Shown one piece after another: positions 9,097 through 40,845 of a DNA stretch of 64,000 bases. The number at the start of each line of letters is the position of its first letter. Positions within the stretch are counted from its first letter, which is position 1. Source of the stretch: Patescibacteria group bacterium (GTDB lineage Bacteria > Patescibacteriota > WWE3 > UBA101185 > UBA10185); assembly GCA_016926555.1 (NCBI GenBank), contig JAFGOI010000013.1:44802-108801 (forward strand), read 5' to 3'. A program made the position numbers and the translations under genes. The notes beneath the pieces were generated by a model, which worked only from the letters and a program-made list of their open reading frames with translations, ran no database searches and had not been told where the DNA came from.

Positions 9097-9303
9097 TCAA
9101 ACAATTTTCCAACTTGTAATCTGCTCTTAGTGCAGGTGAAAACTAATTATTATGGCACCTTGAAAACCCGTATGGGTTGATAGGTCCTACATACACTTAT
9201 ATTTCCCTCTAGTTATCCTGGGATTTGAGTGTATGTTGGGCTTATTAACCCGAATGAACTGGAAAACTGAATAAGAACATAAACTTTTGAAAGGAGGAAG
9301 GCC

Positions 9304-11112: not shown

Positions 11113-11150
11113 TCTAACTTCACACACATCAAATAAGAGGAGTTACAACA

Positions 11151-12089
11151 ATGGAAGCCAAGTTTTGGACGTGGATGAAAGCATTCGTGGTTATCATCCT
11201 GGCCGGAGCACTATCCGGGACGGGATGGTGGGTACTAGTCGGTCGCGGTCTCAAAGGAATCACAACCGCGCCGGGACAGGTGGCACAAGGATATACTGGG
11301 GAAGAGAATCCTTCGATTCAGATACCAGGAGGTCCTCACTGCCTGTTCGGAGGCAAACTGTGCGTCAACATGGGGGGTACCACTTTCTACCTCCCGACTG
11401 GCGAAGAAAGCTGGCTCGACGAAGGCGGCAGTGGAGGCAGTGAAAGCCAAATCGTCACGTTCGAAGTTCCGGAAGAGTCTGAGGACACGACTGGAGCTCA
11501 GACAGCACCGGAGACCAATACGGGTGGCGCAGCTGAGTACATTCGTTCAGGCAAGTGCGCCATGTACGTTGGGTTCCTCAAGGGACTTGGCGACGGCGCA
11601 GACTACACACTCGTAGAGGAACAAGCCAACGAAGTTCTGGCTGAGTGCCCCGGAAACGACGTGGAAGCCATGGAAGTGGCAGCCGCAGCAATGGGGGCGG
11701 TGGGCCTGTACAAGGCGCGACTCCAGGCGGAAGCCGATACAAGACAAATGGCGATCGACTCATGGAACACCGTCGCAATGGCAGCCGAAAGCCTCAGTCC
11801 GACGGACACACGAGGCTTTAAAAGCATCGTCACGGAGCTAGGTGGAACGTTTCACCTGGCCGAGATCGAAGGCTTGTTGCCGAAGATCCTACAGAGGATT
11901 GTTGGAGGCGGTGAGCCTTGCCATGTGTACGTCAACCCACCGACTCTTATGGCAGGCGACGTTAAGGCCGTAGAGATGACGGTTCAACTAGCCGTCCTCT
12001 GGGACCTTGGTATAGGCGCGGAAGGACATGGGCTGACCCTGCCGACAGTTCCCGAGTTCCCAGCGGACTATACACTGACGGAGGAGTGA
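11151..12089 (+). CDS. hypothetical signal-anchored or secreted protein (island gene 2)
   Basis: 312-aa ORF preceded by AAGAGGAG. It has an N-terminal hydrophobic helix (FVVIILAGALSGTGWWVLVG), is GC-rich and has no recognisable domain. It starts 38 nt after the M23 gene stop. Confidence 0.55.
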   Translation: MEAKFWTWMKAFVVIILAGALSGTGWWVLVGRGLKGITTAPGQVAQGYTGEENPSIQIPGGPHCLFGGKLCVNMGGTTFYLPTGEESWLDEGGSGGSESQIVTFEVPEESEDTTGAQTAPETNTGGAAEYIRSGKCAMYVGFLKGLGDGADYTLVEEQANEVLAECPGNDVEAMEVAAAAMGAVGLYKARLQAEADTRQMAIDSWNTVAMAAESLSPTDTRGFKSIVTELGGTFHLAEIEGLLPKILQRIVGGGEPCHVYVNPPTLMAGDVKAVEMTVQLAVLWDLGIGAEGHGLTLPTVPEFPADYTLTEE

Positions 12090-12099
12090 GGAGGCTACT

Positions 12100-12990
12100 A
12101 TGTCCAAGAGATCAAGGCTACTCGAGGAAAAGTACGCCAAAGAAAGGGCGAATCAGGACGCAGATGCCGCAAGAGCAGCCGTAGAGGAGCTGGAAAGTAC
12201 CTGGCAGGCTCGTAAGGGGCTTCTACAGCGACTCTATATCCCTCGGCCCAGCAAGCCGTCATTCCTGGGTTGGGGGTGCCTGTTCGAAATCCTCTACTGG
12301 ACGGCTGTGTTCGTGCTGTGGCTCTACACACCGAGCATTTTGGCACCAGCAGCCGGGATCGGATTGCGACTGTATATGTTGCACAGGTCAGGGAAGCTAC
12401 TGGGGACACTGCCGCAAGATGTACGCGACAAGATCGGCGGTGATGAGGATGAGAATGAGGAATCAGCCGGGAAAGGATCCGGTTTCTTCACCTTCGTGGT
12501 TAAGCTAGGGGTATCCCTGGCTGTCATAATAACCACCGTAGCAATCACCATCAGTGCCCCAGGGTTGGCAGCCCTCTTCGGACTGGTGCTGACGGGTATC
12601 AGCTTCATCTGGCTACGTAAACCAAGCCGACCTTGGCAGGACTCAAAAGGCTTGTGGCATATACACCCCGCCTTCCTGTACTCCCTCCTTACGGGACAGA
12701 TCGGGTACATGTTCCAGAGGTTCTCCTATGGACCGAAAGGAACACGAATTAGCCGCTGGCGGATCTTGAGCTTCGGACGAGGTGAAAGCAATGTGGGAGG
12801 ATCCACAACAGACATCGACGTAGATGTGACTATCCTATCGTGGTTGCTTGGCGCAGCCATTGTTACAATAGGAAGTTCCGGGGGAGATCCCGACGAAGCC
12901 TTCATACCAAGGTGGGCAGACATCGACACCATCCTCAACCACATCATGGAGAACATCAAGGACGAGGGCGATGGGGAGGACGATGAATGA
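12100..12990 (+). CDS. hypothetical polytopic membrane protein (island gene 3)
   Basis: 296-aa ORF preceded by GAGGAGG, starting 10 nt after the stop of gene 2. It has about 4 hydrophobic helices, an acidic loop and an acidic C-terminus, and is GC-rich. Confidence 0.55.
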   Translation: MSKRSRLLEEKYAKERANQDADAARAAVEELESTWQARKGLLQRLYIPRPSKPSFLGWGCLFEILYWTAVFVLWLYTPSILAPAAGIGLRLYMLHRSGKLLGTLPQDVRDKIGGDEDENEESAGKGSGFFTFVVKLGVSLAVIITTVAITISAPGLAALFGLVLTGISFIWLRKPSRPWQDSKGLWHIHPAFLYSLLTGQIGYMFQRFSYGPKGTRISRWRILSFGRGESNVGGSTTDIDVDVTILSWLLGAAIVTIGSSGGDPDEAFIPRWADIDTILNHIMENIKDEGDGEDDE

Positions 12991-13261
12991 AAGCCCAATG
13001 GACGGGGGACCGCCCCATGCAGTTTCGCCAGTTCACATGCGGGAGCAGCAAGAAAGGAGACAAGAAAAGCTAACTGCCCGGAGCCCTCCGCTCTACCTAC
13101 TACACACAATATGTCGTGTGCAGCAAGGGGAACGGGGGGCTTCGTCGTTTTATAGACTTTTTTTGAGTTAGAACCACAACACCTTTACTAACACTTTAGA
13201 TCGCAAAAATATTACTTACTTTCAGAAATGAGAAACCATTCAAAATCTAATAAAATAAATG

Positions 13262-23649: not shown

Positions 23650-25050
23650 TTATTCCTCGAATATCATTTGCTTTATGTTAACTATATCTTGCCTTAGTTT
23701 CCCCATTTTTGTAAGTTCTTCCCCTATTTTATCCACACCGTGCATAATTGTTGTGTGATCCCTACCTCCTAAAAATTCTCCGATGGTCATAAACGGTGTG
23801 TCTGTAATATCTTTAATAAGATACATGGCTACTTGTCTGGGGATAACTATTTCTTTTGTTCGTCTTTTCCCTTTTAAATCGGTTGATTTAACAGAGTAAT
23901 AAGTACACACATATTTTAATATTTGGTTCATATTTACAGGTATTGAAGATCTTTCTTTAATCGTGTGCCCGAGTATGTTTGCAGCGTTATCAACAGTGAA
24001 ATCCAACCCGGATGATCGAATGCTTGTTAATACCTGCATGTAAGCTCCTTCTAACTCTCTAATGTTTGTAACCACTTTTTCTGCAATAAAATCAATGACA
24101 TCATTTGGGATAGTGTCTTGGTTTTTGTCTCTTAAATTCCTTAAAATAGCTATTCTCATCTCTAAGTCAGGAGGTTGTATGTCTGCAATTATTCCTGAAG
24201 CAAAGCGTGAAGTAATTCTATCTTCAAGTTTAGTAAATTCTTTAGGTGGTCTATCTGAAGTTATTACTATCTGTTTTTGAGCCATGTAGAGTGTGTTAAA
24301 TGTGTGGAAGAATTCCTCTTGAGTAGTCTCCCTACCTATTACAAATTGGATGTCGTCAATTAGTAGGACATCCGCCTTGCGAAACTTATTTCTAAATTCG
24401 TTAGAAGCGTATTTTCCTCTTCTTCCACTTTGAATTGATTCAATTAACTCATTTGTGAATTGTTCCCCTGTTGTATAAATAACTTTCATGCCAGGTTTAG
24501 ATTGAATAATTCTGTTTCCAATTGCTTGCAGTAGATGTGTTTTTCCTAGTCCCACGCCGGAGTACATAAATACAGGATTGTATTGTTCCCCCGGTCTTTC
24601 TGCTACAGCTATGGCTATTGCATAAGCAAGGTTGTTGTTTCTTCCTGTAACGAAAGTTTCGAACGTAAATTTTGGTGTTAAATTTGATCTTTGCTGTTTT
24701 TCCCTAAAAAGATTTTCCTGGTCCTGCTTTTGTGTAAATAAGGGACCTAGTACAGTATCTTCTTCCATGCCTTCTTCTTCGTATTGTTGCGTTGTTTTGA
24801 ATACTTTGGATGTTAGCTTGCTTTTAGTGTCTGTAGTTTTGTCTATTACCATTTTTATGTTGTCTATGTATTTTGAGTCTATATTCCTTTTAGTAAATGT
24901 GTCTTCACAAATGATCTCATATTTATTGTCAGATATTTTATTAAGAGTTGCCTTGTTGCTTAAAGATCTAAATATAGGTGATTTTATTTCTATTTCACCT
25001 ATAATTGCTTTCCACAATGTAGTTGTATCTACTTGAGTTTTCTTAGACAT
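23650..25050 (-). CDS. dnaA: chromosomal replication initiator DnaA
   Basis: AAA+ Walker A GVGLGKTHLLQAIGN, a C-terminal DNA-binding domain, and a probable start at MSKKTQVDTTTLWKAI. A perfect DnaA box TTATCCACA lies upstream at 25119-25127. Confidence 0.9.
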   Translation of the reverse strand: MSKKTQVDTTTLWKAIIGEIEIKSPIFRSLSNKATLNKISDNKYEIICEDTFTKRNIDSKYIDNIKMVIDKTTDTKSKLTSKVFKTTQQYEEEGMEEDTVLGPLFTQKQDQENLFREKQQRSNLTPKFTFETFVTGRNNNLAYAIAIAVAERPGEQYNPVFMYSGVGLGKTHLLQAIGNRIIQSKPGMKVIYTTGEQFTNELIESIQSGRRGKYASNEFRNKFRKADVLLIDDIQFVIGRETTQEEFFHTFNTLYMAQKQIVITSDRPPKEFTKLEDRITSRFASGIIADIQPPDLEMRIAILRNLRDKNQDTIPNDVIDFIAEKVVTNIRELEGAYMQVLTSIRSSGLDFTVDNAANILGHTIKERSSIPVNMNQILKYVCTYYSVKSTDLKGKRRTKEIVIPRQVAMYLIKDITDTPFMTIGEFLGGRDHTTIMHGVDKIGEELTKMGKLRQDIVNIKQMIFEE

Positions 25051-25154
25051 ACTTATTTGTTGGTATAATAACATTTCGTGGACAGATTACGGGGCAGTAG
25101 ATATAAATTTAGCATGAGTTATCCACAATGATAAAGCAACGTGTGTTGGTTTAA

Positions 25155-25902: not shown

Positions 25903-26331
25903 TTATTTTTCTAAACTTTTAAAGTATCTCCTTAATATTATACCAGCAGCTAGATGGTCTTTGTGTTGCCCTCTTTTTTGGGATATTTCCAGCTCAATAG
26001 AGGCTTCAAGTGCCTCTCTTGAGGAGTCTAGTTCTTCCTGGAATTCCACTGGTTTTTTTGATATCGCTTTTAACAAATTGGCGAACTTTCTAACTTTCTT
26101 GGCCTGATTGGTATCTTTTCCGTCATGTGTTACAGGGAGTCCCAGTACATATAGATCTACCTTATTCTGCATACCGATTCTTGTTATTTCTTGTGCGGCA
26201 AATATGGAATTTTTTCCCGGGATAATATTTAGAGGTTGAACTAACTCGTTTCTTCCGAGTGCAATACCTATATTAGTTTCTCCGTAGTCTATTCCTATAT
26301 AAGTTTTTGCTGATGTGTTTCTTTTATTCAT
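25903..26331 (-). CDS. ruvX: YqgF/RuvX-like RNase H-fold nuclease
   Basis: 142-aa ORF with YIGIDYGETNIGIALG at the N-terminus (RuvX LGxDxGxKxIGVAxS pattern). Confidence 0.55.
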   Translation of the reverse strand: MNKRNTSAKTYIGIDYGETNIGIALGRNELVQPLNIIPGKNSIFAAQEITRIGMQNKVDLYVLGLPVTHDGKDTNQAKKVRKFANLLKAISKKPVEFQEELDSSREALEASIELEISQKRGQHKDHLAAGIILRRYFKSLEK

Positions 26332-27845
26332 TCTCGCACTATTTCTAGGTGAATTTTATCTGTTTCATGTGGGACATATCCGAAAAACGGAATACTGGGT
26401 CTTATTTCTAATTCATATGTTTGAATATTATTTATACCGCCAAGTGTTTTTTGGGCTTCCTCGGGAGTTTTACCCTTAAGACTTTCTATTATATCTTCTT
26501 TGTTTAACTTGGGTACAATATAGGTTTTAAGAGTGACTTGCACATCGGCTTCGGTTGGGGATAATATGCTGTTGGTTGAATTCCCCAGAATATCCACTTT
26601 AGTATCCCTATCACCTTCGTATAGCTCAAATCCTTCGGGTACAATATCCGCTACTATTTTATCCAAAAAACTGTCCAAGTCTTTTTTTGAGTATGATAGT
26701 CCTGTTGCTGTTATTTCTTGTGTAAGTGTGAGTTCTTTTGTTTCTTCACCCAGTTCGTGGCTGTACTTCTCGTTGGTTATGGTGGTCGAATATGAGCCCT
26801 CAATATATTGAAATCCGGTATTTACAGTGTTTTTCAAGGATTTGGCAGCTTTTTCCTCGGCTTCTTCTAAAAGTTCTAATGACAATTTTTCTATATCGTC
26901 CTTGCCCACAGTTTTAATTGTTGTACTTTTCCCACCCTTGAAATCAGAGTTTGCCTCCGCGGCGGCTTTGCTTTTCTTATAGTCGTCCAGTTCTAATGCG
27001 GAGCCTTTTTCTATGTTGTAGGCATCCCCTATGTGTTTTGCTTCAACATCAACCTCTTTCTGCCCGGGGATAAGAGGACTTCCCGGATCTGTAATATCTT
27101 GGGGAGCAAGTGGAGGGATTTTAATATCGTCTAAAGTGACAAATACTAAATCTTCATCGTCTTCTTTATAAGCTAGTTCGGCTCCTTTGTCTAACTCAAT
27201 TTCATCTGTTGTTTTGTTATAAATCAGTACAGTTCCCCTGGCTTTTTCTCCTTCGATTTTTTCTCCTGTTGTTTCAATTGATTTTTCATTTTTTATTTTG
27301 GTTTCAACAGATATACCCTTGAGTATTTTGTTTTCTATATTTGTGTCTGAAGTTGATGAAACTTTTACTGTGATGCTGCGTGTAAGTGGCTGTGCGTTAA
27401 CGAAAATTTTTGCATAGGCCTCGGGTTTTTTCGAGAGCATCTTTAGTCCGAAATATCCTATTATCGCGATAACTAAGGGAATCACCAAAAATAGAAGATT
27501 GAATTTCAATTTCGGAAATTTACGTTTTTTTCTGGGCTTAGTTTCTGCAGCGGACCCTTCAAATGTGGCTACTTCGTCTATACTGTCTGAATCCTCTAGT
27601 ACGCTTGTGCCTACTTTTTCCTCCATCATCTCAATTAATGTGTTTCCCTGCTCATCTGTTGTCGTGAAATGTACGCTTACGTCGTTTTTGTCGCAGAAGG
27701 AATTTATTAGCTTAAGATTAATGATGTTGTCGAAAAGAACGGAGCCATCTGGAACTATAAGTTCTATGCCGGAGTCATTGATATTTCTGATTTTATTTAT
27801 GGTGGATATTGTATCGTCGTAAAGTTCAAGTTCTATTTTAGTCAT
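26328..27845 (-). CDS. bitopic membrane protein, hypothetical (part of VirB4-like operon)
   Basis: 505-aa ORF with a basic stretch plus a TM helix around residues 105-135 and a large charged extracellular region. Its ends overlap both neighbouring genes. Confidence 0.5.
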   Translation of the reverse strand: MTKIELELYDDTISTINKIRNINDSGIELIVPDGSVLFDNIINLKLINSFCDKNDVSVHFTTTDEQGNTLIEMMEEKVGTSVLEDSDSIDEVATFEGSAAETKPRKKRKFPKLKFNLLFLVIPLVIAIIGYFGLKMLSKKPEAYAKIFVNAQPLTRSITVKVSSTSDTNIENKILKGISVETKIKNEKSIETTGEKIEGEKARGTVLIYNKTTDEIELDKGAELAYKEDDEDLVFVTLDDIKIPPLAPQDITDPGSPLIPGQKEVDVEAKHIGDAYNIEKGSALELDDYKKSKAAAEANSDFKGGKSTTIKTVGKDDIEKLSLELLEEAEEKAAKSLKNTVNTGFQYIEGSYSTTITNEKYSHELGEETKELTLTQEITATGLSYSKKDLDSFLDKIVADIVPEGFELYEGDRDTKVDILGNSTNSILSPTEADVQVTLKTYIVPKLNKEDIIESLKGKTPEEAQKTLGGINNIQTYELEIRPSIPFFGYVPHETDKIHLEIVRE

Positions 27846-29142
27846 ATTTTACTCCTGTTATTTCACTATATATTATTGAAAGGCAGGCTAGAGGCAGCCA
27901 TTCAGAATTGTTTGTTCTTCCTGTAGCGTCATTTATTTTACTTAGATCCATAAAATCAAGTTTTTTAAAATCCGGAGGCTGTTTGAAAGGAACAGATCTC
28001 ATCCAAGGCTCCTCAGATACAGTTTCTACAAGGTTTGGAATATGTGTCGCGGCTCCGGTTAGATATACTTTGGGAGAGAAGGTTTTGACGCCGCTAAATT
28101 CACCAAATAGAAGTTCAAGACCTTGCAGCCATACGTCTAGAGTTTCAAGCAAACACGAATGGACAATGGCGCTTTCTCCGGGAGTTAATTTCTCAGATAT
28201 AAATGCCTCCAACACTTTTTCTGCTTCCATGGGAGTTAAACCCATTTTTTCACCTAGATCCTCAATAAAATGATTGTATCCTATATTTAAACTTCTGGTT
28301 GCAGCGATTCCCTTTCCGAATACGACGGCTACATTAGTCGAATCATTGCTAGTATCGATGATAACGTAGTCGGTGTTTTCAAGGGAGGCAAAGTTTAACT
28401 GTTGCGCGATTGAGTATGTTTCCGATCCTACTGCAAATAAGTTAAGACCGCTAGCGTCGATGACTTTCTCAAGTGTTCTTAAGTGAAACTTTGGGCAGAA
28501 AGAGTTAAATACGGCAGTTTCAATGACCTTTCCTTCCTTCCCTTCCAGTTCGTCAATAAATTTTCCGTCCAGTTTTGTATATACGTTTGATGTGGTTATT
28601 ACTTCTAAGTCTGCGTCGGGATTACCCGTTTTATTTAAATAGTCATTTTGGACCTGCATATAGGCTGCTTCTAGAAGCTGTTTATATATCTTGTCTATAT
28701 CTTTTTTCGAAATTGGGGATTTAGTTCCTCGATTTACTCTTACAGTTGTCATTAATCCCATACACATGTCTCCTGTTACGCCAACGATAACTTGTTTGAT
28801 ATTTTCTTCCAGATCTTTGGTAGCGTTTACTACAGCAATTTTTATTGCTTCTTCTACATCGGATTGGTCTATAATTGTCCCAGAGAGTACACTTCCCAGT
28901 TCCAGCTTCTGCTTGTCATGACCTATAATTTTACAGGAAGATTCTTCCTGGTACATAACTAAACACCTCACATAAGAAGAACTTATCTCCAGAGTAAAAA
29001 ATTTATTAGAATCTCTTTGGGACTTTTTCAGGAAGGGTAGCATAACCATTGGCTTTATTTTAGAATATTTTGCTTTAAAAGGGAATTTTACCAGGAGGTA
29101 TTTTGGGAGGAGGCGGTTTTTCTGTTTCGTTAAATCCGGCAC
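27838..29142 (-). CDS. actin-fold ATPase of FtsA/PilM family
   Basis: 434-aa ORF. Alternating beta/alpha segments with Gly-rich phosphate-loop-like regions (VIVGVTGD, YVIIDTSNDSTNVAV) are typical of the ASKHA FtsA/PilM fold. No ftsZ is adjacent. Confidence 0.45.
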   Translation of the reverse strand: MPDLTKQKNRLLPKYLLVKFPFKAKYSKIKPMVMLPFLKKSQRDSNKFFTLEISSSYVRCLVMYQEESSCKIIGHDKQKLELGSVLSGTIIDQSDVEEAIKIAVVNATKDLEENIKQVIVGVTGDMCMGLMTTVRVNRGTKSPISKKDIDKIYKQLLEAAYMQVQNDYLNKTGNPDADLEVITTSNVYTKLDGKFIDELEGKEGKVIETAVFNSFCPKFHLRTLEKVIDASGLNLFAVGSETYSIAQQLNFASLENTDYVIIDTSNDSTNVAVVFGKGIAATRSLNIGYNHFIEDLGEKMGLTPMEAEKVLEAFISEKLTPGESAIVHSCLLETLDVWLQGLELLFGEFSGVKTFSPKVYLTGAATHIPNLVETVSEEPWMRSVPFKQPPDFKKLDFMDLSKINDATGRTNNSEWLPLACLSIIYSEITGVKYD

Positions 29143-31525
29143 GTTCTTGTATGTATTTTTCTACTTCAGCTACTGGTGTTCCGTATTTCATACGTGACAT
29201 TTCTCTTATTTGTGCCGCAACTTGTATATTTTTAGGGATTTTGTTTACTTCTTCCCAATTGAGAAATACAGAGAAGGGAGGGGTTGGGTGCCCATTTACA
29301 AGCAGTCTCATATAGAAGTTACCTATGGGAAGATTGCTCATGTCTTGCGGCGTGAAAACGGGTGCCATTTCGCTTTCGAACACTTCTGCGTCTTCTATGC
29401 CAATTCTGAATACAGCTTTGGTTCCAACGTTTCCCATTACGGCATTTTTAATATCTTCATCCAATTGCGAAATAAACTGATGCGCGACAACGAGTGCGAG
29501 TTTGTATTTTCTGGCTTCTGATAATATGGTCGCGAAGTCCTCTGTAGCGAAATTCTGGAACTCGTCTACATAGAGATAAAACGGAGGGAAGTCTCTATCC
29601 CCGCGGGAAAGTCTTTCTTGTCGTCGTAGAGCTGATGCAAGAATTCTGGGTATTATTAGAAGTCCCAAAAAGTTGGCGTTTTCTTCCCCTATCATTCCCT
29701 TTGCTAATTTTATAAGAAGGATTTTTTTATTATCCATAATCTCTGTGAAATTGAAAGCTGATTTTGGTTGACCTAGTATATTTCTCATTAATCTATCTGT
29801 AACAAATCTATCAAACTTGGAGACGAAATAACCCATTTTTTCACCCTTATGATAATCACTTGTGTTTGCCATTTCGTCTGTCCAATACCTTTTGACTAGA
29901 GGGTCTTCCAGTTTGTCAATGAACTTTTGCGAGTATTTAGGATCAATAAGTAGGCGCAGTACATCTACCATCGATGCTGCCGGGTCCACCATTGCCGTTA
30001 ACATGACGTTTCTAATGGCACGTTCCAATTGGGGGCCCATAATTCCTTGTCTGTTTGGGTCATACATCTTGTATAGTAGGGCAATAAAAGCATTTACTAT
30101 CATATGTTTTTCCTCTTCACTATGAGCTTCTAGCATATTGATACCCATAGGGCGTTCTGTATCTGAAGGATCGAATAAAATTACATCGTTTATTCGTTCC
30201 GGGGGTATCTTTTCCAGAAGTTCATCTATGTCTCCTCCATGGGGATCTATAATCGCTAAACCCTCTCCGTTTAGAATATCTTGTAGTGCTAAAGACATCA
30301 TATAGACTGATTTACCTGTGCCGGTTTGGCCGATAATATAGAAATGACGCAACCTATCTTTATCAAGCATATGAATTCTTTTTTCTACTCCTCTATAAAC
30401 ACTAGAACCTAGGTTCAAGCCCTCTTCGGGAATATTAGTTGGTGCGGGAGCTTTTCGAGCAGTTAACCACATAATGTTTGGAGTTAATACGTCTTTGTTG
30501 GGGAAGTGGAATATTGTAGCCAATTCTTTAATACTGAGTATTGAACAGTTTGAGGCAAGTGTGATACCAAGTACGGGAACGGTAATATCTTTAACACTCA
30601 TACGTCTGTATATAAAGTCGTCCACAACTTTCATTGTTGACCAGAATCCCCTAGTTACGAACTTGTTGTAATTTGGATCTGTGAATTGTTCAAAGGCGCT
30701 TAGCATGTTTTGTGTATGATTTTGTGCAGCTATATTGTCTTTTCCTATAGCTATTATCCTAATTTTTGTGTAAAGTCCTGGATGGGCGATCTTCTTTTCC
30801 ACACCTTCAATAAAGGAGGTATCCACAAAGGTTTTATTTTCCGTATCAGCGCTTTTCTGCTTTATTTTTGCGATATATCCGCGTCCTGCATAACGCCAGT
30901 TGTCGTTAGCAGGTTGAACAATATATTGGACGGATACAACCTCTTCCTCACCCAGTTTACTCATAGCGGACGTAATGGAATTAAGAGCATCGTTTTTAAG
31001 TTCCTCATAGTCTTTAATAGGATAGTAGTTCGGGCCTTTCAGTTTAAGTTCTGTTACTTTTGTGTACTCACCTCTATCCCATATTTCTTGCGGATTGACT
31101 ATATCTATTTCAGCAGACGGATAGGCCGCGTGTATCTGTTTTTCTACAAGAGCAGCTATTTCGTCTGGTATTACTACATAAAAACCAATGCCATCTGTTT
31201 TTGACACTATCTCAAAAGAAATTCGGTATTGTCCTGTAAAGAAAGCGCCCCACAAAGTTTTTCTAAATCCCATAAGGTTAGAGAACATATGTTCAGCCGA
31301 GTCAACTTCTATTTCATTATCTTTTGGGAGTTTTATCTGCAAGAATGTGAGATTATATGCATGCTTCTGCTCCTCGGCTTTTTTCTTTTTAGATATTAAA
31401 AAATAGATAATTCCCAAGACAGACCCAATGGCTACTGCTGTGTATATAGAAACCCAAAATATTGAATAAAATGGATTATTTATGTCCATGGGCAGCCTCA
31501 ACCTCTTGAATAAATTTTTCTTCAT
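29075..31525 (-). CDS. VirB4/TraC-like (DUF87-type) AAA+ ATPase with N-terminal TM segment (VirB3-VirB4-fusion-like)
   Basis: 816-aa ORF with an N-terminal helix, Walker A GQTGTGKS at about residue 395, a Walker B/DE region LYVDEFQNF, and an overall length and ATPase position like VirB4. Confidence 0.65.
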   Translation of the reverse strand: MKKNLFKRLRLPMDINNPFYSIFWVSIYTAVAIGSVLGIIYFLISKKKKAEEQKHAYNLTFLQIKLPKDNEIEVDSAEHMFSNLMGFRKTLWGAFFTGQYRISFEIVSKTDGIGFYVVIPDEIAALVEKQIHAAYPSAEIDIVNPQEIWDRGEYTKVTELKLKGPNYYPIKDYEELKNDALNSITSAMSKLGEEEVVSVQYIVQPANDNWRYAGRGYIAKIKQKSADTENKTFVDTSFIEGVEKKIAHPGLYTKIRIIAIGKDNIAAQNHTQNMLSAFEQFTDPNYNKFVTRGFWSTMKVVDDFIYRRMSVKDITVPVLGITLASNCSILSIKELATIFHFPNKDVLTPNIMWLTARKAPAPTNIPEEGLNLGSSVYRGVEKRIHMLDKDRLRHFYIIGQTGTGKSVYMMSLALQDILNGEGLAIIDPHGGDIDELLEKIPPERINDVILFDPSDTERPMGINMLEAHSEEEKHMIVNAFIALLYKMYDPNRQGIMGPQLERAIRNVMLTAMVDPAASMVDVLRLLIDPKYSQKFIDKLEDPLVKRYWTDEMANTSDYHKGEKMGYFVSKFDRFVTDRLMRNILGQPKSAFNFTEIMDNKKILLIKLAKGMIGEENANFLGLLIIPRILASALRRQERLSRGDRDFPPFYLYVDEFQNFATEDFATILSEARKYKLALVVAHQFISQLDEDIKNAVMGNVGTKAVFRIGIEDAEVFESEMAPVFTPQDMSNLPIGNFYMRLLVNGHPTPPFSVFLNWEEVNKIPKNIQVAAQIREMSRMKYGTPVAEVEKYIQERAGFNETEKPPPPKIPPGKIPF

Positions 31526-31889
31526 CCGCGTCAGCCCGGTCAGTTATTTTGTCTTTTGGTGTTTTTATTTCGTGTAGTTCTGTTACTTTCTCCGTTTTAT
31601 CTACAATGTTAAGTTCTTCTTGAGCTACTTCAGTATCAAGCGAAATTGTTTGTGGTTCTGGGAGTTTCTTTGGTTGCGGAGTTTCAGACACAGGTTTTGG
31701 TTCTGTTTCCGGTGCCTTTTGAACCTCTTGGGCTTCCTGAACTTCCGATGGTGTATATGTCTCGAAAGAAGGTACGTACCCTTCGGGGTTTTTTGGTTCG
31801 GCAGGTTTGGATGGGGCTTGTTGTGGAGGAATATCGTCAGCACCTTGATTATTTAGATTTGTGACTGGAGGTTGTTTAGATACATCCAT
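31476..31889 (-). CDS. Pro/Glu/Lys-rich low-complexity protein, hypothetical
   Basis: 137-aa ORF whose 3' end overlaps the VirB4-like gene start by 50 nt. Several competing frames exist here; this one is chosen for operon continuity. Confidence 0.35.
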   Translation of the reverse strand: MDVSKQPPVTNLNNQGADDIPPQQAPSKPAEPKNPEGYVPSFETYTPSEVQEAQEVQKAPETEPKPVSETPQPKKLPEPQTISLDTEVAQEELNIVDKTEKVTELHEIKTPKDKITDRADADEEKFIQEVEAAHGHK

Positions 31890-31959: not shown

Positions 31960-32304
31960 TTAGATTTCTTCCGATTCTCGTTCAGTGTCGTTTTTTGTGG
32001 TTTTAAATAATCTTTTTACCTTTTTAGTACTCTTTTCCATTCCGGCGGCTAAGTCTTCTAGTTTATCTTCTATTACCGCGCTTGTATCTGAGATATTTTC
32101 TGAAACAGTCTCTACCATGTCTCCGATTTTTGCTTTTACGTTATCGACCGCTTCCTTGCCTTTGTCTAGAGCGTCCTCTCCCGCCTCTTTTATTTTCTTT
32201 CGGGTTTCTTTACCGGGAGCTGGAGCGAACAGCATTCCTAATAACGCTCCAAGCGCTGCTCCTAAGGCGGCCCCCTTAACAAATGATTTCTTTGAACCTG
32301 TCAT
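31960..32304 (-). CDS. YtxH-like small membrane/stress protein
   Basis: An N-terminal Gly/Ala-rich helix (GAALGAALGALLGMLFAPAPGK) followed by a charged coiled segment, the architecture of YtxH/DUF948-like proteins. Confidence 0.45.
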   Translation of the reverse strand: MTGSKKSFVKGAALGAALGALLGMLFAPAPGKETRKKIKEAGEDALDKGKEAVDNVKAKIGDMVETVSENISDTSAVIEDKLEDLAAGMEKSTKKVKRLFKTTKNDTERESEEI

Positions 32305-32305
32305 A

Positions 32306-32578
32306 TTAATCCTCCTTGTATTTAGAATTATCTATAAGACTGCTGATACCTTTAACAGCCCTAACACTTTCGGAAATTCCTGAGATAAATCCTGCAATTG
32401 TTGATACAGGACCTGATACAGCCCCTGTAACATCGCCTACGTCATCTAATACCCTGTTTGCCTTTTTCACGGTTTCGAGAAAATTTTTCAGAACCAACAC
32501 CAAATAAACCCCAACGAAGGTAAGATTGGCAGCCAGTATTATAAGAACTATTATTAATGTGACCTGTAAGTAGTCCAT
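32306..32578 (-). CDS. small membrane protein (DUF948-like)
   Basis: 90-aa ORF with an N-terminal TM helix and an amphipathic C-terminal region, adjacent to the YtxH-like gene. Confidence 0.4.
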   Translation of the reverse strand: MDYLQVTLIIVLIILAANLTFVGVYLVLVLKNFLETVKKANRVLDDVGDVTGAVSGPVSTIAGFISGISESVRAVKGISSLIDNSKYKED

Positions 32579-35960: not shown

Positions 35961-37733
35961 TTATTTCTTTAAAATTTGTCTGAATGCTTCCTGTGGAATG
36001 TCCACCTTTCCAAACTTTTTAAGGCGCGCCTTGCCCTTTTTTTGTCTTTCCAGGAGTTTGTCTTTACGTTCCCTATGGCCCCCGTAAATTCCCGCGAGGA
36101 CGTCTTTTCTGGTAGCCGGGATGTCTTCTCGAGCTACGATTTTTCCTCCAATAGCTGCCTGCAACGCCACTTTGAATTGTTGACGGGGGATTACTTCCTT
36201 TAGCTTTTTTAATAGCTTGCGCCCGTTTTCTTCCGCTTTGTTTTTTAGAACTATATAGGATAGAGGCTCAATTATTTCTCCGTGTACAAGAATATCCAGT
36301 TTGACAGCTTCAACCGGCCTAAAATCAAGAAAATTGTAATCTAAGCTCGCAAAACCTGAAGACACGCTTTTTAGATCGTCGAAGAAGTTGTATACGAGTT
36401 CCGATAGAGGCAGTTCATACTCGAATAAAACAGTATTTTCTGAGGGATATTCCATGTTTTTCTGAATACCTCTCCTTTCCTCGCATAGAGAGATTATATT
36501 TCCCGTGTATTCTGTTGGGGATACAAGAGTGAGTTTTATCCAGGGCTCTTTGACTTGTCTTATTTTCGTTGGATCCAGGAATTCTGAGGCGGTTCTGATA
36601 TTTACAACTTCTCCGTCAGTTTTAATAATTTGATACTCGACTGTAGGGGTTGTTGATACGAGGTTCAGGCTGTATTCTCTTTCCAGTCTTTCCTGGATTA
36701 TATCCGCGTGAAGTAGGCCCAAAAATCCGCATCTGAATCCAAATCCTAAAGCAGTACCGGTCTCGGGTTCGTATGTTAATGATGCATCAGACAATGAAAG
36801 TTTATCTAGGGCATTTCTGAGCTGATTATATTTATCGTTTTCCACTGGAAATATAGAGACGAAGACGAAAGGCTTTATGTTTTTATATCCCGGAAGAGGT
36901 TTAGGGTTCTGTGTCTCGTATCCGACTGTGTCGCCTACTTTAACTGCATGAATATCTTTTAGTCCCGTAGCAATATATCCTACTTCCCCTGTTGACAGTC
37001 TCTGTGACTTCTTTCTTTTGGGTGAGAAATACCCAATTTCATCGCATTTTGTAGTTTTATTGGTCGCGAGGAATCTTATTTCTCTATCACTCGATATCCT
37101 CCCGTCGACTACTTTTACGGCAGCAATCACACCCATGTATTCATCATAGTAGGAGTCAAATATTAGAGCGCGCATGTTGGTATCAGGATTCCCTTTAGGT
37201 GCCGGTATCTTCTCTATAAGGGTATCTAAAAGTCTGTCTATTCCCTCACCCGTTTTTGCCGATACCTTGATTATCTCATCTATGCTAAAGCCAAACATAT
37301 TTGTAATGTCTTTTGTGACTTTGTTTATATCGCTACCTTTTAGATCTATTTTGTTTATTACGGGAATAATAGTCAGATCCGCTTCTAGCGCTTTATATAT
37401 ATTTGATACTGTTTGTGCCTGAATTCCCTGGGAAACATCAACAACTAGAATCGCGCCCTCACAAGCTGCAAGGGAACGAGATACCTCGTAGGAGAAATCA
37501 ACATGTCCGGGCGTATCTATTAGATTTAATTGATATCCTTTATAAGCCATTCGGACCGCCTTTAGTTTGATTGTAATTCCTTTCTCGCGTTCAAGTTCCA
37601 TAGAATCCAGAAATTGGGTTTTTAGGTTTCTTTTATCCACTGTTTCTGTTATCTCAAGAAACCTATCAGCGAGAGTAGATTTTCCGTGGTCTATGTGAGC
37701 TATAATGCAGAAATTTCTGATTTTATCTTGCAT
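35961..37733 (-). CDS. lepA: elongation factor 4 (LepA)
   Basis: G1 motif AHIDHGKSTL, DTPGHVDF, and the EF4 C-terminal domain. Confidence 0.95.
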   Translation of the reverse strand: MQDKIRNFCIIAHIDHGKSTLADRFLEITETVDKRNLKTQFLDSMELEREKGITIKLKAVRMAYKGYQLNLIDTPGHVDFSYEVSRSLAACEGAILVVDVSQGIQAQTVSNIYKALEADLTIIPVINKIDLKGSDINKVTKDITNMFGFSIDEIIKVSAKTGEGIDRLLDTLIEKIPAPKGNPDTNMRALIFDSYYDEYMGVIAAVKVVDGRISSDREIRFLATNKTTKCDEIGYFSPKRKKSQRLSTGEVGYIATGLKDIHAVKVGDTVGYETQNPKPLPGYKNIKPFVFVSIFPVENDKYNQLRNALDKLSLSDASLTYEPETGTALGFGFRCGFLGLLHADIIQERLEREYSLNLVSTTPTVEYQIIKTDGEVVNIRTASEFLDPTKIRQVKEPWIKLTLVSPTEYTGNIISLCEERRGIQKNMEYPSENTVLFEYELPLSELVYNFFDDLKSVSSGFASLDYNFLDFRPVEAVKLDILVHGEIIEPLSYIVLKNKAEENGRKLLKKLKEVIPRQQFKVALQAAIGGKIVAREDIPATRKDVLAGIYGGHRERKDKLLERQKKGKARLKKFGKVDIPQEAFRQILKK

Positions 37734-37747
37734 GGAGTGATTTTACA

Positions 37748-39388
37748 CTAGTCGATCTGGTTTTGGTTTACTGCTGAAAGTTGATTGTTCTTAATGAACC
37801 TTGATAAGTTTAGCCGCTTTACCAGTTCATAGAAGAGTTGTATTTCCTCAACCTTTAACATGTAAGTGAAGAAGAGATAGGTTACACATCCGGCCAGGGT
37901 TGTCAAAGCAGTAAGTATCAACATATTGAGAGTTTTTGTTGTATCCAGGACAGTTATATCAAGCAATTTTAAACCGCCGTATATGGTTGCTCCCATCATT
38001 ACGGTGGCGTAGGAGATCTTAACAAAGGGGATAATTATTTTTTTTGGATTTATCCCGTTTACTTTTGGAGATAAAAAGTACACCAGAAATACAGTTTCCA
38101 GTATTGCCGACACCGAGTATACTAATGCAACACTCCACACGCCGAACCCTAAGATATGCACAAGAGTAAATGCAGTTGAAACGTTAAATAATGAGGATAT
38201 GATGCTTATATTTACTGGGATTTTGGTGTTCTTAAGAGCGAAAAAGGCTCTTGTTAATATATAGTTTGCGCTTTGCGCAAAAATACTTACGCTGAAAAAA
38301 CCCAGTACGTACGAGGTTTTTATGGTTGCTTCCCAGGGAAAATTACTAACGCCGTAAACAATTCTTACGGAGGGAACTCTTAACACAAACAAGATCATGC
38401 TTATTGGCATTACTAGAAACAGCATCTGGTGTAAGGATGTATATAGGGATCTTTTAAATTTATCTATATTCTCCGGGTCACTTTGCGTGGATAAAGTTGG
38501 CAAAGCAGCGGATGCAATGGACATTCCGAATATACCTACAGGGAAAAATTGAAGCTGATTAGCGAATTTTAAATATACTACTGAAGAAGCCGAAATTAAA
38601 AGGGCGAGAGAATTATTTATTGTTTGTACTAGTCCTGCTAAGGTTACTTGTGCAATACGCGACGGTACGAGTTTCAGAGTTTCCAGCATGTGCGTATCTT
38701 TAAAAGGTTGGAAAACATGAAACTTAAATTCAGATCTAAGTAGTAAGGGTATTTGTATCCCAACATGAAGCAGAGCGCCAATTAAAACGCCGAAAGTGGG
38801 TCCGTAAATGCCAAATTCCGAGGAAAAGAAGAAAGTTCCAAACATCATACCCAGGTTGTAGAAGACGGGGGCTAATGCGGGAACTATAAAGTATTTGTAT
38901 GACTGTAAAACGCTCGTGGCGAGACTTCCTCCTACGAGTAATACTTGTGCGAGAATCATAATTCTCATAATATTTACGCCCAGATAGATTTCATCGGCGG
39001 TAAAATTGCCGACGGCTAAGAGAGACAAAATTTGAGGGGCAAAAATAAAAATCAGAATTCCCATTGCGATAAATGCAATTAGTACGCTGATTATCATAGA
39101 GGTAGCTGTCCTATGGGCGACTTCTTTGTTTTGCTTTTTTAAACTTGTGAATGTTGGAATAAATACTGTCGAAACCACCCCGATAACCAGTATAGAATAT
39201 ATGAGATTGGGTATTCTGTCTGCAGTGTAGAATATAGCCAGTTGGTTGGAAACACCAAAAAAGTGTGCTAGAAGTCTGTTTTTGGCGAAACCCAATACAG
39301 CGTTGAACCCCGTCGTGATGGACAGGACAAAGGCTGCAGATAGGATAGTATTTTGTGTTCTTGCAAGAGATAACTTACCGTTTATCAT
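37748..39388 (-). CDS. murJ: lipid II flippase MurJ (MviN family)
   Basis: 546-aa ORF with 14 TM helices, N-terminal LSAAFVLSITTGFNAVLGFAKNRLLAHFFG and DRIPNLIYSILVIGVVSTVFIPTF, as in MurJ. Confidence 0.75.
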   Translation of the reverse strand: MINGKLSLARTQNTILSAAFVLSITTGFNAVLGFAKNRLLAHFFGVSNQLAIFYTADRIPNLIYSILVIGVVSTVFIPTFTSLKKQNKEVAHRTATSMIISVLIAFIAMGILIFIFAPQILSLLAVGNFTADEIYLGVNIMRIMILAQVLLVGGSLATSVLQSYKYFIVPALAPVFYNLGMMFGTFFFSSEFGIYGPTFGVLIGALLHVGIQIPLLLRSEFKFHVFQPFKDTHMLETLKLVPSRIAQVTLAGLVQTINNSLALLISASSVVYLKFANQLQFFPVGIFGMSIASAALPTLSTQSDPENIDKFKRSLYTSLHQMLFLVMPISMILFVLRVPSVRIVYGVSNFPWEATIKTSYVLGFFSVSIFAQSANYILTRAFFALKNTKIPVNISIISSLFNVSTAFTLVHILGFGVWSVALVYSVSAILETVFLVYFLSPKVNGINPKKIIIPFVKISYATVMMGATIYGGLKLLDITVLDTTKTLNMLILTALTTLAGCVTYLFFTYMLKVEEIQLFYELVKRLNLSRFIKNNQLSAVNQNQID

Positions 39389-39471
39389 TTTTATACTTTA
39401 ACTTTCCTCTATAAAATAACAGTTAATTAGTTTGGAAAATAGCTTTTCCTATGCTATCATACTAGCCGATT

Positions 39472-39789
39472 ATGCCAAATACTAAATCAGCAAAAAAAGC
39501 AGTGAGATCTTCTTCGAAGAAAAAGGCGCGCAACTTTTTTTGGAAAGGTAGAATAAAGAGGTCTGCAAAGACTTTAGCTAGGGTTTTGGTTGAAACGGAT
39601 GTGGAAGGCAAGGTCCTAAATGAACAGCTATCTGGTTTGCAGAAGGTTTTAGACAAAGCCTCAAAGAATAAAATTATTTCTAAAAATAAGGCTAATAGGC
39701 TAAAATCTAGGTATGCCCAAAAAGTTAAGTCTAATCTTACAAAAGCTGCCAAAACTCAAAAATCTACTAAAAATCTCGCGGAAGAATAA
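39472..39789 (+). CDS. rpsT: 30S ribosomal protein S20
   Basis: MPNTKSAKKAVRSSSKKKARN N-terminus. A candidate promoter TTGGAA-N17-TATCAT lies at about 39432-39461. Confidence 0.8.
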   Translation: MPNTKSAKKAVRSSSKKKARNFFWKGRIKRSAKTLARVLVETDVEGKVLNEQLSGLQKVLDKASKNKIISKNKANRLKSRYAQKVKSNLTKAAKTQKSTKNLAEE

Positions 39790-40324
39790 GCAAAATGAAG
39801 GCGGAGAAACTTTAAATCTACTCGCATCTGTTACAGAGGTGACCCAAAATATTCTTCAGATACCTCGTCCAATTAAAATATACAGACAAATTATTCTGGT
39901 TATCCTGTTGAGTTTTTCATTAGGCCTTTTTATCGATAATCGGATTCAGAGGCGTCTTTATGAGTTAAAATCAGAATTAGATTTAGCAGAGGAGAATGTA
40001 TGGGAACTGGTTTATGTAGAGGATCTAGCAAGGGATTTGGATAAGAAAATTCATCAGTACCAATATCTTCTTGAAAAACGTGCAATCTTTACAAGTAAAT
40101 TAGAGTCAGTTTTAGCTCCGTTGAGTTCGTCAGACGTGTCGAAGATTTCAATAAGATTTGGCGATTTTTCAGTCAGTACAGTAGAAAGTAGTCCATATAC
40201 CGCGGCAAGACTAATCGGTACATATTTAGAAGACGAAAATATTGATTATATTTTGTTACAATCAGCCTCTTTTGATGTTAAAAATAAAAATGTTCAGATT
40301 GAATTAAAAGGAGGGTTTAGGTGA
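39713..40324 (+). CDS. bitopic membrane protein with coiled coil (PilN-like topology); true start probably downstream of the rpsT stop
   Basis: As drawn, the ORF overlaps rpsT by 77 nt in another frame. A TM helix (IILVILLSFSLGLF), then a coiled coil, then a beta-rich domain. It is the first of four overlapping genes. Confidence 0.4.
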   Translation: MPKKLSLILQKLPKLKNLLKISRKNKQNEGGETLNLLASVTEVTQNILQIPRPIKIYRQIILVILLSFSLGLFIDNRIQRRLYELKSELDLAEENVWELVYVEDLARDLDKKIHQYQYLLEKRAIFTSKLESVLAPLSSSDVSKISIRFGDFSVSTVESSPYTAARLIGTYLEDENIDYILLQSASFDVKNKNVQIELKGGFR

Positions 40325-40845
40325 AAAGTATTAAGAGGTTATCAAACTCTGTACGACTTCATCAGATGTGGGTTCTATGTGTTTTTATTGTGTTTGTACT
40401 ATTTGGGGGGGTTTTATTATCAAGGAACCTGTATAACAAGGTTATATTAATTGGTAAGATGAAGAAAGTGACTGTGGCGTTAAATAATAAGTCAAAGAAG
40501 TTGGAGAAAATGAGAAACGACATACGGAATTTGGATATCAAAATTTCTGCGCTCGATAAAAAAGTTTCCCCCGAAGTCCACCTGGGTGACTATATGGTTG
40601 AGCTTGCTGTTGCATGTGGTAAGTCGGGGTATGTGTTGGAAAAATTTGCCCCTACTTACCACAATACTACGGGGAATTACACGATTATATTGTCCGTTAC
40701 TGGGAGCAGGGATCCAGCGAGGTTGACAGCTGAAATAGAATCTCTGGATAGAATAACTAAAATAGAAGGTATGGATATTGACATAGGAAAATCTGTTAAC
40801 TCTATAACTATGAGTATAACTGTATTTTCCGGAAATGTTTTATGA
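40321..40845 (+). CDS. bitopic membrane protein with coiled coil (PilO-like topology), hypothetical
   Basis: N-terminal TM helix, coiled coil, then a soluble domain. 4-nt overlaps on both sides. Confidence 0.45.
   Translation: MKSIKRLSNSVRLHQMWVLCVFIVFVLFGGVLLSRNLYNKVILIGKMKKVTVALNNKSKKLEKMRNDIRNLDIKISALDKKVSPEVHLGDYMVELAVACGKSGYVLEKFAPTYHNTTGNYTIILSVTGSRDPARLTAEIESLDRITKIEGMDIDIGKSVNSITMSITVFSGNVL

Follow-up and report, generated by a model that had tools for sequence, protein, structure and literature searches.

Patescibacteria are rich in conserved genes of unknown function, and parts resembling type IV secretion systems (T4SSs) are essential in the few cultivated members. A survey of Patescibacteria counted 5,713 VirD4-like homologues of the type IV coupling proteins (T4CPs) in 2,918 genomes, at thresholds of independent E-value (i-E) < 0.001 and profile coverage > 50 %; only 148 of them lay near virB4, and the authors described the homologues as "possibly exapted for other functions" (Quiñonero-Coronel et al. 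2025, PMC12102498). Here we investigated a stretch of 64,000 nucleotides, hereafter the window, from a Patescibacteria group bacterium of candidate division WWE3 (GenBank assembly GCA_016926555.1, contig JAFGOI010000013.1, positions 44,802 to 108,801), in which the gene for a membrane-anchored P-loop ATPase lies next to that for an actin-fold protein related to FtsA and PilM. An earlier note on this DNA had read the locus as one VirB4-centred machine with an actin-like partner. Comparison with related genomes did not bear this out: the adjacency is restricted to WWE3, and each of the two genes belongs to a separate conserved module. We consider, with a probability of roughly 0.7, that these are two independent, vertically inherited chromosomal modules which stand side by side in WWE3 by neighbourhood history and do not form one machine.

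Synteny of the ATPase and actin-like genes

The four same-strand genes singled out by the earlier note were confirmed as open reading frames (ORFs) on the minus strand, and they are followed by RuvX. In the order of transcription they are:

31476-31889, minus strand: Pro/Glu-rich protein of 137 aa, an ORF overlapping the ATPase start.
29075-31525, minus strand: membrane-anchored protein with a DUF8128 domain and a P-loop ATPase of the VirB4/VirD4/HerA type; longest ORF 816 aa, likely start at 31489 (804 aa).
27838-29049, minus strand: FtsA/PilM-like actin-fold protein, 403 aa from its corrected start; the longest ORF, 27838-29142, has 434 aa.
26328-27845, minus strand: 505-aa bitopic partner, with its transmembrane (TM) helix at 27429-27518 and an 8-nt overlap with the actin-like gene.
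25903-26331, minus strand: RuvX (YqgF), Pfam RuvX 93 bits, with a 4-nt overlap with the 505-aa gene.

We examined 80 genome loci containing relatives of the ATPase, whose ORFs were searched by tblastn, jackhmmer and family hidden Markov models (HMMs). The actin-like gene was found near the ATPase only in WWE3, in 15 of 18 loci; the 505-aa partner was present in 14 of those, and in the fifteenth the contig is cut inside the actin-like gene. Wherever the adjacency occurs in WWE3, the whole HrcA-GrpE-DnaK…RuvX-HAD-DnaA block is syntenic. The 61 non-WWE3 loci, from Levyi-, Woese-, Gottesman-, Shapiro-, Blackburn-, Cerri-, Woykebacteria and others, encode ATPases that are 43-50 % identical, and none of them carries the actin-like gene or the 505-aa partner; the flank exceeded 3 kb upstream in 53 of these loci and 3 kb downstream in 39. 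Co-occurrence of the gene pair in related genomes, which the earlier note had put forward as a check, therefore stops at the boundary of WWE3. An apparent actin match near the ATPase in one of the loci (L025) was rejected as DnaK.

The same separation was seen from the side of the actin-like gene. In a metagenome scan seeded with 8 non-WWE3 members of the actin-like family and followed by HMM searches, a homologue of the 505-aa protein was the next gene in 24 non-WWE3 actin-like loci (17 complete, 7 cut by contig ends) and lay nearby on the other strand in one further locus, and neither an FtsZ-signature gene nor a DUF8128 ATPase was found within 7 kb of them. The two modules are also pulled apart inside WWE3. 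The ATPase and the actin-like gene have two extra genes between them on a 994-kb contig and 3.5 kb of extra DNA in locus L010, and in deep WWE3 lineages the modules are separated by AlaS and two genes (L081) or by AlaS (L082). Comparison with these two deep loci suggests that alaS is absent from that position in the window. Because the ATPase and the actin-like protein are neighbours only in WWE3, each with its own conserved module, we do not regard their pairing as a machine.

Some observations weigh against this conclusion. In this genome a gap of only 25 nt, free of terminator-like sites, separates the modules. The adjacency persists across much of WWE3, which leaves room for a lineage-specific functional link. 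Finally, the T4SS partners of the Candidate Phyla Radiation (CPR) have diverged very far and could escape Pfam scans.

The overlap between the ATPase and actin-like genes, which had contributed to the impression of a single unit, did not survive inspection of the gene starts. Homologues of the actin-fold protein are uniformly about 400 aa long (46 of 46) with the N-terminus MxxLPFL, and the matching start in the window is ATG-GTT-ATG-CTA-CCC-TTC-CTG at 29049, which gives a protein of 403 aa and a gap of 25 nt from the ATPase stop (29075). The length of 434 aa and the 68-nt overlap with the ATPase derive from the GTG start of the longest ORF. Because all 46 homologues start at MxxLPFL, matched at 29049, the overlap is, as judged from these aligned starts, an artefact of ORF calling, and we rejected it as a sign of coupling between the two proteins. 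The ATPase itself probably starts at Met13 of its ORF, where the family consensus begins (31489; MDINNPFY), so that the protein would have 804 aa; the overlap with the upstream Pro/Glu-rich gene then stands, with a probable length of 14 nt instead of 50 nt.

The actin-like protein and its bitopic partner

Analysis of the AlphaFold2 (AF2) model of the actin-like protein, with a predicted local distance difference test score (pLDDT) of 90.6, supported the earlier assignment to FtsA/PilM-like proteins (Foldseek E about 1e-22). The top 29 matches in the PDB were all FtsA or PilM (E 6e-23 to 6e-19, 13-18 % identity), with template-modelling scores of 0.68-0.70 for FtsA and 0.57-0.65 for PilM, and the next fold class (EutJ, Hsp70, ParM) started at E 2e-9. 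The predicted structure thus places the protein in the FtsA/PilM structural clade of the actin fold. Among 1.84 billion representatives, 343 relatives were retrieved by a profile search at E <= 1e-30. The named family members come from WWE3, Berkelbacteria, Dojkabacteria, Dormibacterota and Ktedonobacteraceae, and their database labels are inconsistent (FtsA, PilM or hypothetical).

The protein had previously been called an actin-like ATPase, a description that holds for the fold and is doubtful for the enzymatic activity. The wider family has intact nucleotide-binding loops (DIGT, DIGGGTTD and GGGSxLP), which the WWE3 members lack; the window protein has LEISSS, DTSNDSTN and TGAATHIP as its phosphate-1, phosphate-2 and adenosine loops. 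From these degenerate loops we infer that nucleotide binding has been weakened or lost in the WWE3 protein. Two other family members, P0333 (808 aa) and P0374 (969 aa), whose closest named relatives are Ktedonobacteraceae, have long N-terminal extensions followed by low-complexity linkers. To the eye, the extensions resemble in sequence a TIR-like domain and a caspase-like domain, which suggests that the actin-like scaffold may sometimes be coupled to signalling or defence-type domains.

The bitopic nature of the 505-aa protein was confirmed by a hydropathy scan, which gave one TM helix at residues 110-139. The helix is preceded by a cytoplasmic N-domain of ~85 aa and a linker and is followed by an ectodomain of ~365 aa. 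This topology is constant across the partner family, in which a variable linker joins a conserved N-domain to the single TM helix and an ectodomain of ~350 aa follows; the N-terminal 75 residues form its most conserved segment. Weak Baseplate_J and GlxA beta-barrel matches were obtained for the ectodomain in half of the WWE3 members, and the 505-aa protein gave no match to PilN.

The pair formed by the actin-like gene and its partner was found in CPR and, judging by how family members are annotated, also in Dormibacterota and Chloroflexota; its usual place is between alaS and ruvX–mltG. The conserved gene order is (IscS–DUF218–MnmA)–AlaS–actin-like–partner–RuvX–YceG/MltG–(LysM-CHAP or MreB)–Obg, in loci that span 34 to 64 % GC. 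We found no description in the literature of an FtsA/PilM-like family with a constant bitopic partner in an alaS–ruvX–mltG block, and a search for literature on FtsA-like or actin-like proteins in CPR or Chloroflexi returned nothing specific.

We treat the FtsA/PilM-like protein and the 505-aa bitopic protein (with RuvX) as one module, Module B. The actin-fold protein would act as a cytoplasmic scaffold held at the membrane by the N-domain of its partner, by analogy with PilM/PilN, FtsA/FtsN and MreB/RodZ, and the module would link this assembly in the cytoplasm with a beta-barrel ectodomain that acts on the cell envelope, in its growth or division. The scaffold encoded in this genome has probably lost the capacity to bind or hydrolyse ATP. 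A broader proposal, which we put forward tentatively and at somewhat short of even odds, is that the pair represents an unrecognised, clade-wide cytoskeleton-to-envelope module, inherited since the common ancestor of Chloroflexota, Dormibacterota and Patescibacteria within the alaS–ruvX–mltG cluster as a third sibling of FtsA–FtsN and PilM–PilN, with a separate role in envelope growth or division, and that in WWE3 it has become a nucleotide-independent pseudo-ATPase scaffold.

Among the alternatives, the one that survives best, although we consider it unlikely, is that the actin-like protein is a diverged form of the clade's cell-division FtsA which has moved away from ftsZ, with the 505-aa protein as an FtsN-, FtsQ- or DivIB-like partner in the divisome. 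Of the curated models, the FtsA equivalog TIGR01174 scored best for each of the 48 family members tested (best E 3e-36), yet the window protein reached only 48 bits against its cut-off of 175.85. Structural similarity is slightly higher to FtsA than to PilM, several database records name members FtsA, and the gene neighbours include cell-wall functions, namely MltG and, in some loci, MreB or LysM-CHAP hydrolases. However, the gene was never beside ftsZ in at least 24 loci, whereas the same scan recovered 26 canonical FtsA loci with an FtsZ-signature gene directly downstream. Profile scores split the two groups by about 40 orders of magnitude, family members scoring at E 1e-61 to 1e-88 and canonical FtsA at 1e-11 to 1e-20. 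The earlier observation that no ftsZ is nearby also held, the FtsZ signature GGGTG[ST]G being absent from every frame of the window. The degeneration of the nucleotide-binding loops in WWE3 argues in the same direction, as does the C-terminus: no amphipathic membrane-targeting helix was obvious on reading the sequence, and the C-terminal helix (residues 389-396) is packed in the AF2 model.

The DUF8128 ATPase and its acidic partner

The motifs and the single N-terminal TM helix reported earlier for the 816-aa ORF were all recovered. The parts of the ATPase, numbered on that ORF, are:

31388-31465, minus strand: single N-terminal TM helix, residues ~21-46, from a hydropathy scan; the AF2 model has a long helix at residues 18-54.
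30431-31363, minus strand: DUF8128 alpha/beta domain, residues ~55-365, without a detectable relative of known structure.
30308-30331, minus strand: Walker A, GQTGTGKS, residues 399-406, invariant in 61 homologues.
29549-29575, minus strand: Walker B region, LYVDEFQNF, residues 651-659; D654, E655, F656, Q657 and N658 are invariant among homologues.

Precomputed annotation of the protein gives an N-terminal PF26449 (DUF8128) domain plus DUF87, TraG-D_C and TrwB_AAD_bind. Our Pfam searches placed DUF87, TraG-D_C (26.8, cut-off 22) and TrwB_AAD_bind (23.8, cut-off 20.5) above their cut-offs and T4SS-DNA_transf below (17.4, cut-off 20.1). The best NCBIfam models were coupling proteins, led by the SXT TraD model at 43 bits against a cut-off of 366; the CD1115-type VirD4 model was covered over 78 % of its length at 36.6 bits against a cut-off of 250. 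By comparison, the VirB4 model TIGR00929 gave 21 bits against 643.1 and was matched only at positions 497-702 of 792. PDB sequence searches, with the single sequence as well as with a profile, returned only TrwB and DotL, around the P-loop. Of the HMM checks proposed by the earlier note, DUF87 passes and the VirB4, FtsA and PilM models all fail.

The AF2 model (pLDDT 84.3) predicts a long N-terminal helix, an alpha/beta region at about residues 55-365 and a RecA-like domain, with an all-helical insertion (residues 470-600) between Walker A and Walker B. A nucleotide-binding domain with an all-alpha insertion in a TrwB-like fold, an arrangement expected of T4CPs, is present in this model. Foldseek retrieved three classes at E 5e-15 to 3e-12, with TrwK/VirB4 ranked first (5e-15). 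Full-length TrwK/VirB4 aligned over only 372 residues, and because this is comparable to the 320-360 residues of matches to the C-domain alone, the TrwK match evidently covers one domain. No VirB4 N-domain match was seen in the TrwK structural alignment or when the DUF8128 profile was compared with PDB sequences, a search that gave nothing better than E 0.24. What stands of the earlier description as VirB4-type is thus a VirB4-type RecA-like C-terminal ATPase domain with intact Walker A and Walker B motifs; the protein lies outside the VirB4 family. Its core belongs, by sequence and predicted structure, to the VirB4/VirD4/HerA group, and is coupling-protein-like in the former respect and marginally VirB4-like in the latter.

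By analogous NCBIfam results, the ATPase would fall in the T4CP class of the Patescibacteria survey and not in its VirB4 class. The DUF8128 family is already catalogued, and its Patescibacterial members have been counted before as orphan T4CP homologues; a full-text literature search found no papers on DUF8128. The nearest relatives of the ATPase are in candidate division WWE3, with identities of 57-77 % across WWE3 and about 45 % to the Microgenomatia homologues. At 1364-3619 of L082, a deep WWE3 relative, a canonical FtsK with 4TM, alpha, SpoIIIE and gamma domains is encoded 2 kb upstream of the DUF8128 ATPase; since both occur there, the ATPase is no replacement for FtsK.

A small low-complexity ORF immediately upstream was the only constant companion of the ATPase. 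We ruled out a VirB3-like identity for the 137-aa protein at this position, as the hydropathy scan shows no TM helix. The protein is Pro/Glu-rich, is probably disordered and ends in a conserved acidic motif, DKLT-x-EAD-x-EEE-FIEEVE-xx-HG. In 15 WWE3 loci, among them the three that show no actin-like gene (L014-L016; L015 and L016 extend < 1 kb downstream), the gene directly upstream of the ATPase belongs to this family. In L014 the ATPase has kept only the small upstream ORF, amid genes for GAPDH, PGI, sigma-70 and DnaG. Microgenomatia have a small low-complexity ORF with a different motif at the equivalent position; no homology to the WWE3 family was detectable (hhalign probability 0.3 %), and the two are positional analogues only.

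Outside WWE3, the neighbours in the 61 loci were NrdR, ribonucleotide reductase (RNR), a PduO-type adenosyltransferase, an unknown gene, a XerC/D-type recombinase and DivIC. In approximately 25 Microgenomatia-type loci (within L019-L080), NrdR–RNR–PduO precede the ATPase, and after it come a XerC/D-type tyrosine recombinase in the opposite orientation and DivIC/FtsB (for example at 10634-11935 of L038); another subset of the non-WWE3 loci has SpoIID-like and bPH_2 genes downstream. The Microgenomatia context (RNR, XerC/D-like, DivIC) is weakly consistent with a housekeeping role linked to DNA or division, which we offer as speculation. No VirB3-, VirB6- or VirB8-like protein, relaxase or T4SS-channel component was found as a conserved neighbour in the 80 loci. 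In agreement with the earlier note, the Pfam scans of 47 window ORFs matched, apart from the ATPase, no VirB6, VirB8 or relaxase, and no other T4SS-component family.

The small acidic disordered protein and the DUF8128 ATPase, set among housekeeping genes with no conserved T4SS partner gene, would constitute Module A, an "orphan coupling-protein-like" translocase. The ATPase may assemble into a hexameric ring at the cytoplasmic membrane, where it would spend ATP on moving a polymer and would need no dedicated T4SS channel. Its most likely substrate would be DNA, as for the analogous TrwB, FtsK and HerA, and the translationally coupled acidic partner may bind and regulate the ATPase via the conserved C-terminal motif. 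An extension of the broader proposal for Module B, in which its WWE3 scaffold positions this neighbouring translocase, has little probability in our estimate.

The reading of the locus as a single machine holds that a stripped-down, VirB4-centred T4SS-like apparatus serves DNA uptake or host attachment, the actin-like and bitopic proteins replacing VirB6, VirB8 and VirD4. The four genes are indeed tightly packed on one strand with no terminator-like site, TrwK/VirB4 is the top Foldseek match, and the adjacency recurs in 15 of 18 WWE3 loci. Nevertheless, the VirB4 model fails (21 vs 643 bits) without a match to the VirB4 N-domain, the adjacency is missing from the 61 non-WWE3 ATPase loci and from every non-WWE3 actin-like locus retrieved, housekeeping genes are inserted between the modules in several WWE3 lineages, and the ATPase and the actin-like gene each have their own, different, constant neighbour. 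This reading is largely refuted by synteny and we consider it improbable.

It is also quite improbable that the actin-like protein is a PilM serving a type IV pilus together with genes 10 kb away. Directly after rpsT, at 39713-40845 on the plus strand, we observed a 203-aa bitopic ORF, PilN-sized and with no Pfam match, and then a 174-aa ORF that matches PilO weakly (20.9 bits, cut-off 22), with no pilM adjoining. The best PDB sequence match of the actin-like protein was Myxococcus PilM (E 2.5e-4), and some database records name family members PilM. The PilM models nonetheless fail (TIGR01175, 40 vs 133 bits; Pfam PilM_2, 17.8 vs 27), the protein has its own constant bitopic partner that is not PilN-like, and the family resides in the alaS–ruvX–mltG block and not among pilus genes. 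Least probable of all is that the ATPase is a defence or mobile-element enzyme of the HerA, DptH or MADS type: its matches, to PADLOC mad8 at E 1.7e-17 and to HerA models at 9e-8, are confined to the shared P-loop core, the gene is conserved across WWE3 and into Microgenomatia, and the context is one of housekeeping genes, where a nuclease, Sir2 or methylase partner is absent and the module contains no integrase.

Surrounding sequence and known systems

Two independent modules thus remain our preferred reading, and both are embedded in a longer minus-strand gene run. The ORF list and Pfam scan showed a long run on one strand from 17.7 to 39.4 kb of the window, in the order MurJ-like, LepA, HrcA, GrpE, DnaK, a 90-aa membrane protein, a YtxH protein and the 137-aa protein. 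Next in the run are the ORFs of the ATPase (816 aa) and the actin-fold protein (434 aa), then the genes for the 505-aa bitopic protein, RuvX, a HAD hydrolase and DnaA, with more housekeeping genes beyond. The features immediately upstream of the modules are:

32620-32593, upstream of the 90-aa gene: strong promoter-like site, matching 11 of 12 positions.
32306-32578, minus strand: small membrane protein of 90 aa, an ORF with an N-terminal TM segment and the first gene after the promoter-like site.
31960-32304, minus strand: YtxH-domain membrane protein of 114 aa, Pfam YtxH 64 bits (cut-off 37.5).

Homologues of the 90-aa protein occupy the same position upstream of the ATPase module in 15 WWE3 loci, and the YtxH protein is found upstream of the module across WWE3 loci, including the deep lineages L081 and L082. 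No terminator-like site was seen between the genes, and co-transcription of the ATPase and actin-like modules in this genome is plausible, as it is for the whole housekeeping run. An Rfam scan of the whole window returned no family at the gathering threshold, not even a tRNA.

Other parts of the window drew our attention. The cumulative GC skew has its minimum at about 36000-39500, and the genes, which lie on the minus strand at 17.7-39.4 kb, lie on the plus strand from 39.5 kb onwards; together these suggest that the replication origin is near 39 kb, at a distance of about 15 kb from dnaA (23650-25074) and of about 8 kb from the ATPase. T4SS genes of Patescibacteria have been reported to lie near dnaA and the origin (PMC12102498). 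Positions 9200-13100 have 47-54 % GC in a genome of about 37 % GC and look like horizontally acquired DNA. It contains the gene for a 602-aa protein (9304-11112) that is membrane-anchored and has an M23 peptidase domain, as well as two ORFs (11151-12089 and 12100-12990) with no Pfam match. A cell-wall hydrolase of such foreign composition could be part of a mobile element or of a secretion or attachment system.

Our analysis stops an attractive but wrong inference, namely that an actin-like protein has been built into a minimal T4SS. The DUF8128 ATPase with its small acidic partner supplies an architecture and a genomic context for some of the orphan T4CP homologues, whose role is open in the literature on Patescibacteria T4SSs. 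The more novel item is the actin-like/partner pair, rather than the pairing of ATPase and actin-like protein. If this pair is truly a separate envelope or division module, it would bear on how growth is organised in these monoderm lineages (CPR, Dormibacterota, Chloroflexota) and would correct the annotation behind the "FtsA present" and "PilM present" calls in metabolic reconstructions.

Among described systems, the ATPase most resembles the T4CPs (TrwB, VirD4, TraD, DotL), with which it shares a membrane-anchored P-loop ATPase, a helical insertion between Walker A and Walker B, and scores above the Pfam cut-offs for TraG-D_C and TrwB_AAD_bind. It also resembles the orphan VirD4-like homologues of Patescibacteria, most of the 5,713 being, like this one, coded far from a virB4 cluster (PMC12102498). 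It differs from T4CPs in several ways: there is a single TM helix where two are usual, DUF8128 occupies 310 residues between the anchor and the ATPase core, no relaxase or conserved T4SS partner lies nearby, the scores stay far under every curated T4CP equivalog cut-off, and a small acidic partner is constant upstream. With VirB4 (TrwK of R388 and the C-domain from Thermoanaerobacter pseudethanolicus, 4ag5) it shares the sequence of an N-domain followed by a C-terminal RecA-like ATPase, whereas VirB4 has no TM anchor of this kind, TIGR00929 falls far short (21 vs 643 bits), and VirB3, VirB6 and VirB8 families are missing from the window Pfam scans and from the conserved neighbours in the 80 loci.

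The actin-like protein resembles FtsA, which works with FtsZ and FtsN, in its predicted FtsA/PilM-type subdomain arrangement (template-modelling score 0.68-0.70) and in being the likely peripheral partner of a bitopic membrane protein. Unlike FtsA, it shows about 15 % identity, fails the equivalog model, never stands beside ftsZ, has degenerate ATP loops in WWE3 and has a Baseplate_J-like bitopic protein as its constant neighbour. The gene arrangement is closest to PilM–PilN and also recalls MreB–RodZ, in that an actin-fold gene lies directly upstream of that for a bitopic protein, with the conserved cytoplasmic N-terminus of the latter as the likely place of docking. In the present pair, however, this N-domain is folded and comprises ~85 residues, as opposed to the short peptide of PilN or the helix-turn-helix domain of RodZ; the ectodomain is unrelated, and the genomic context is alaS–ruvX–mltG rather than pilus or mre genes.

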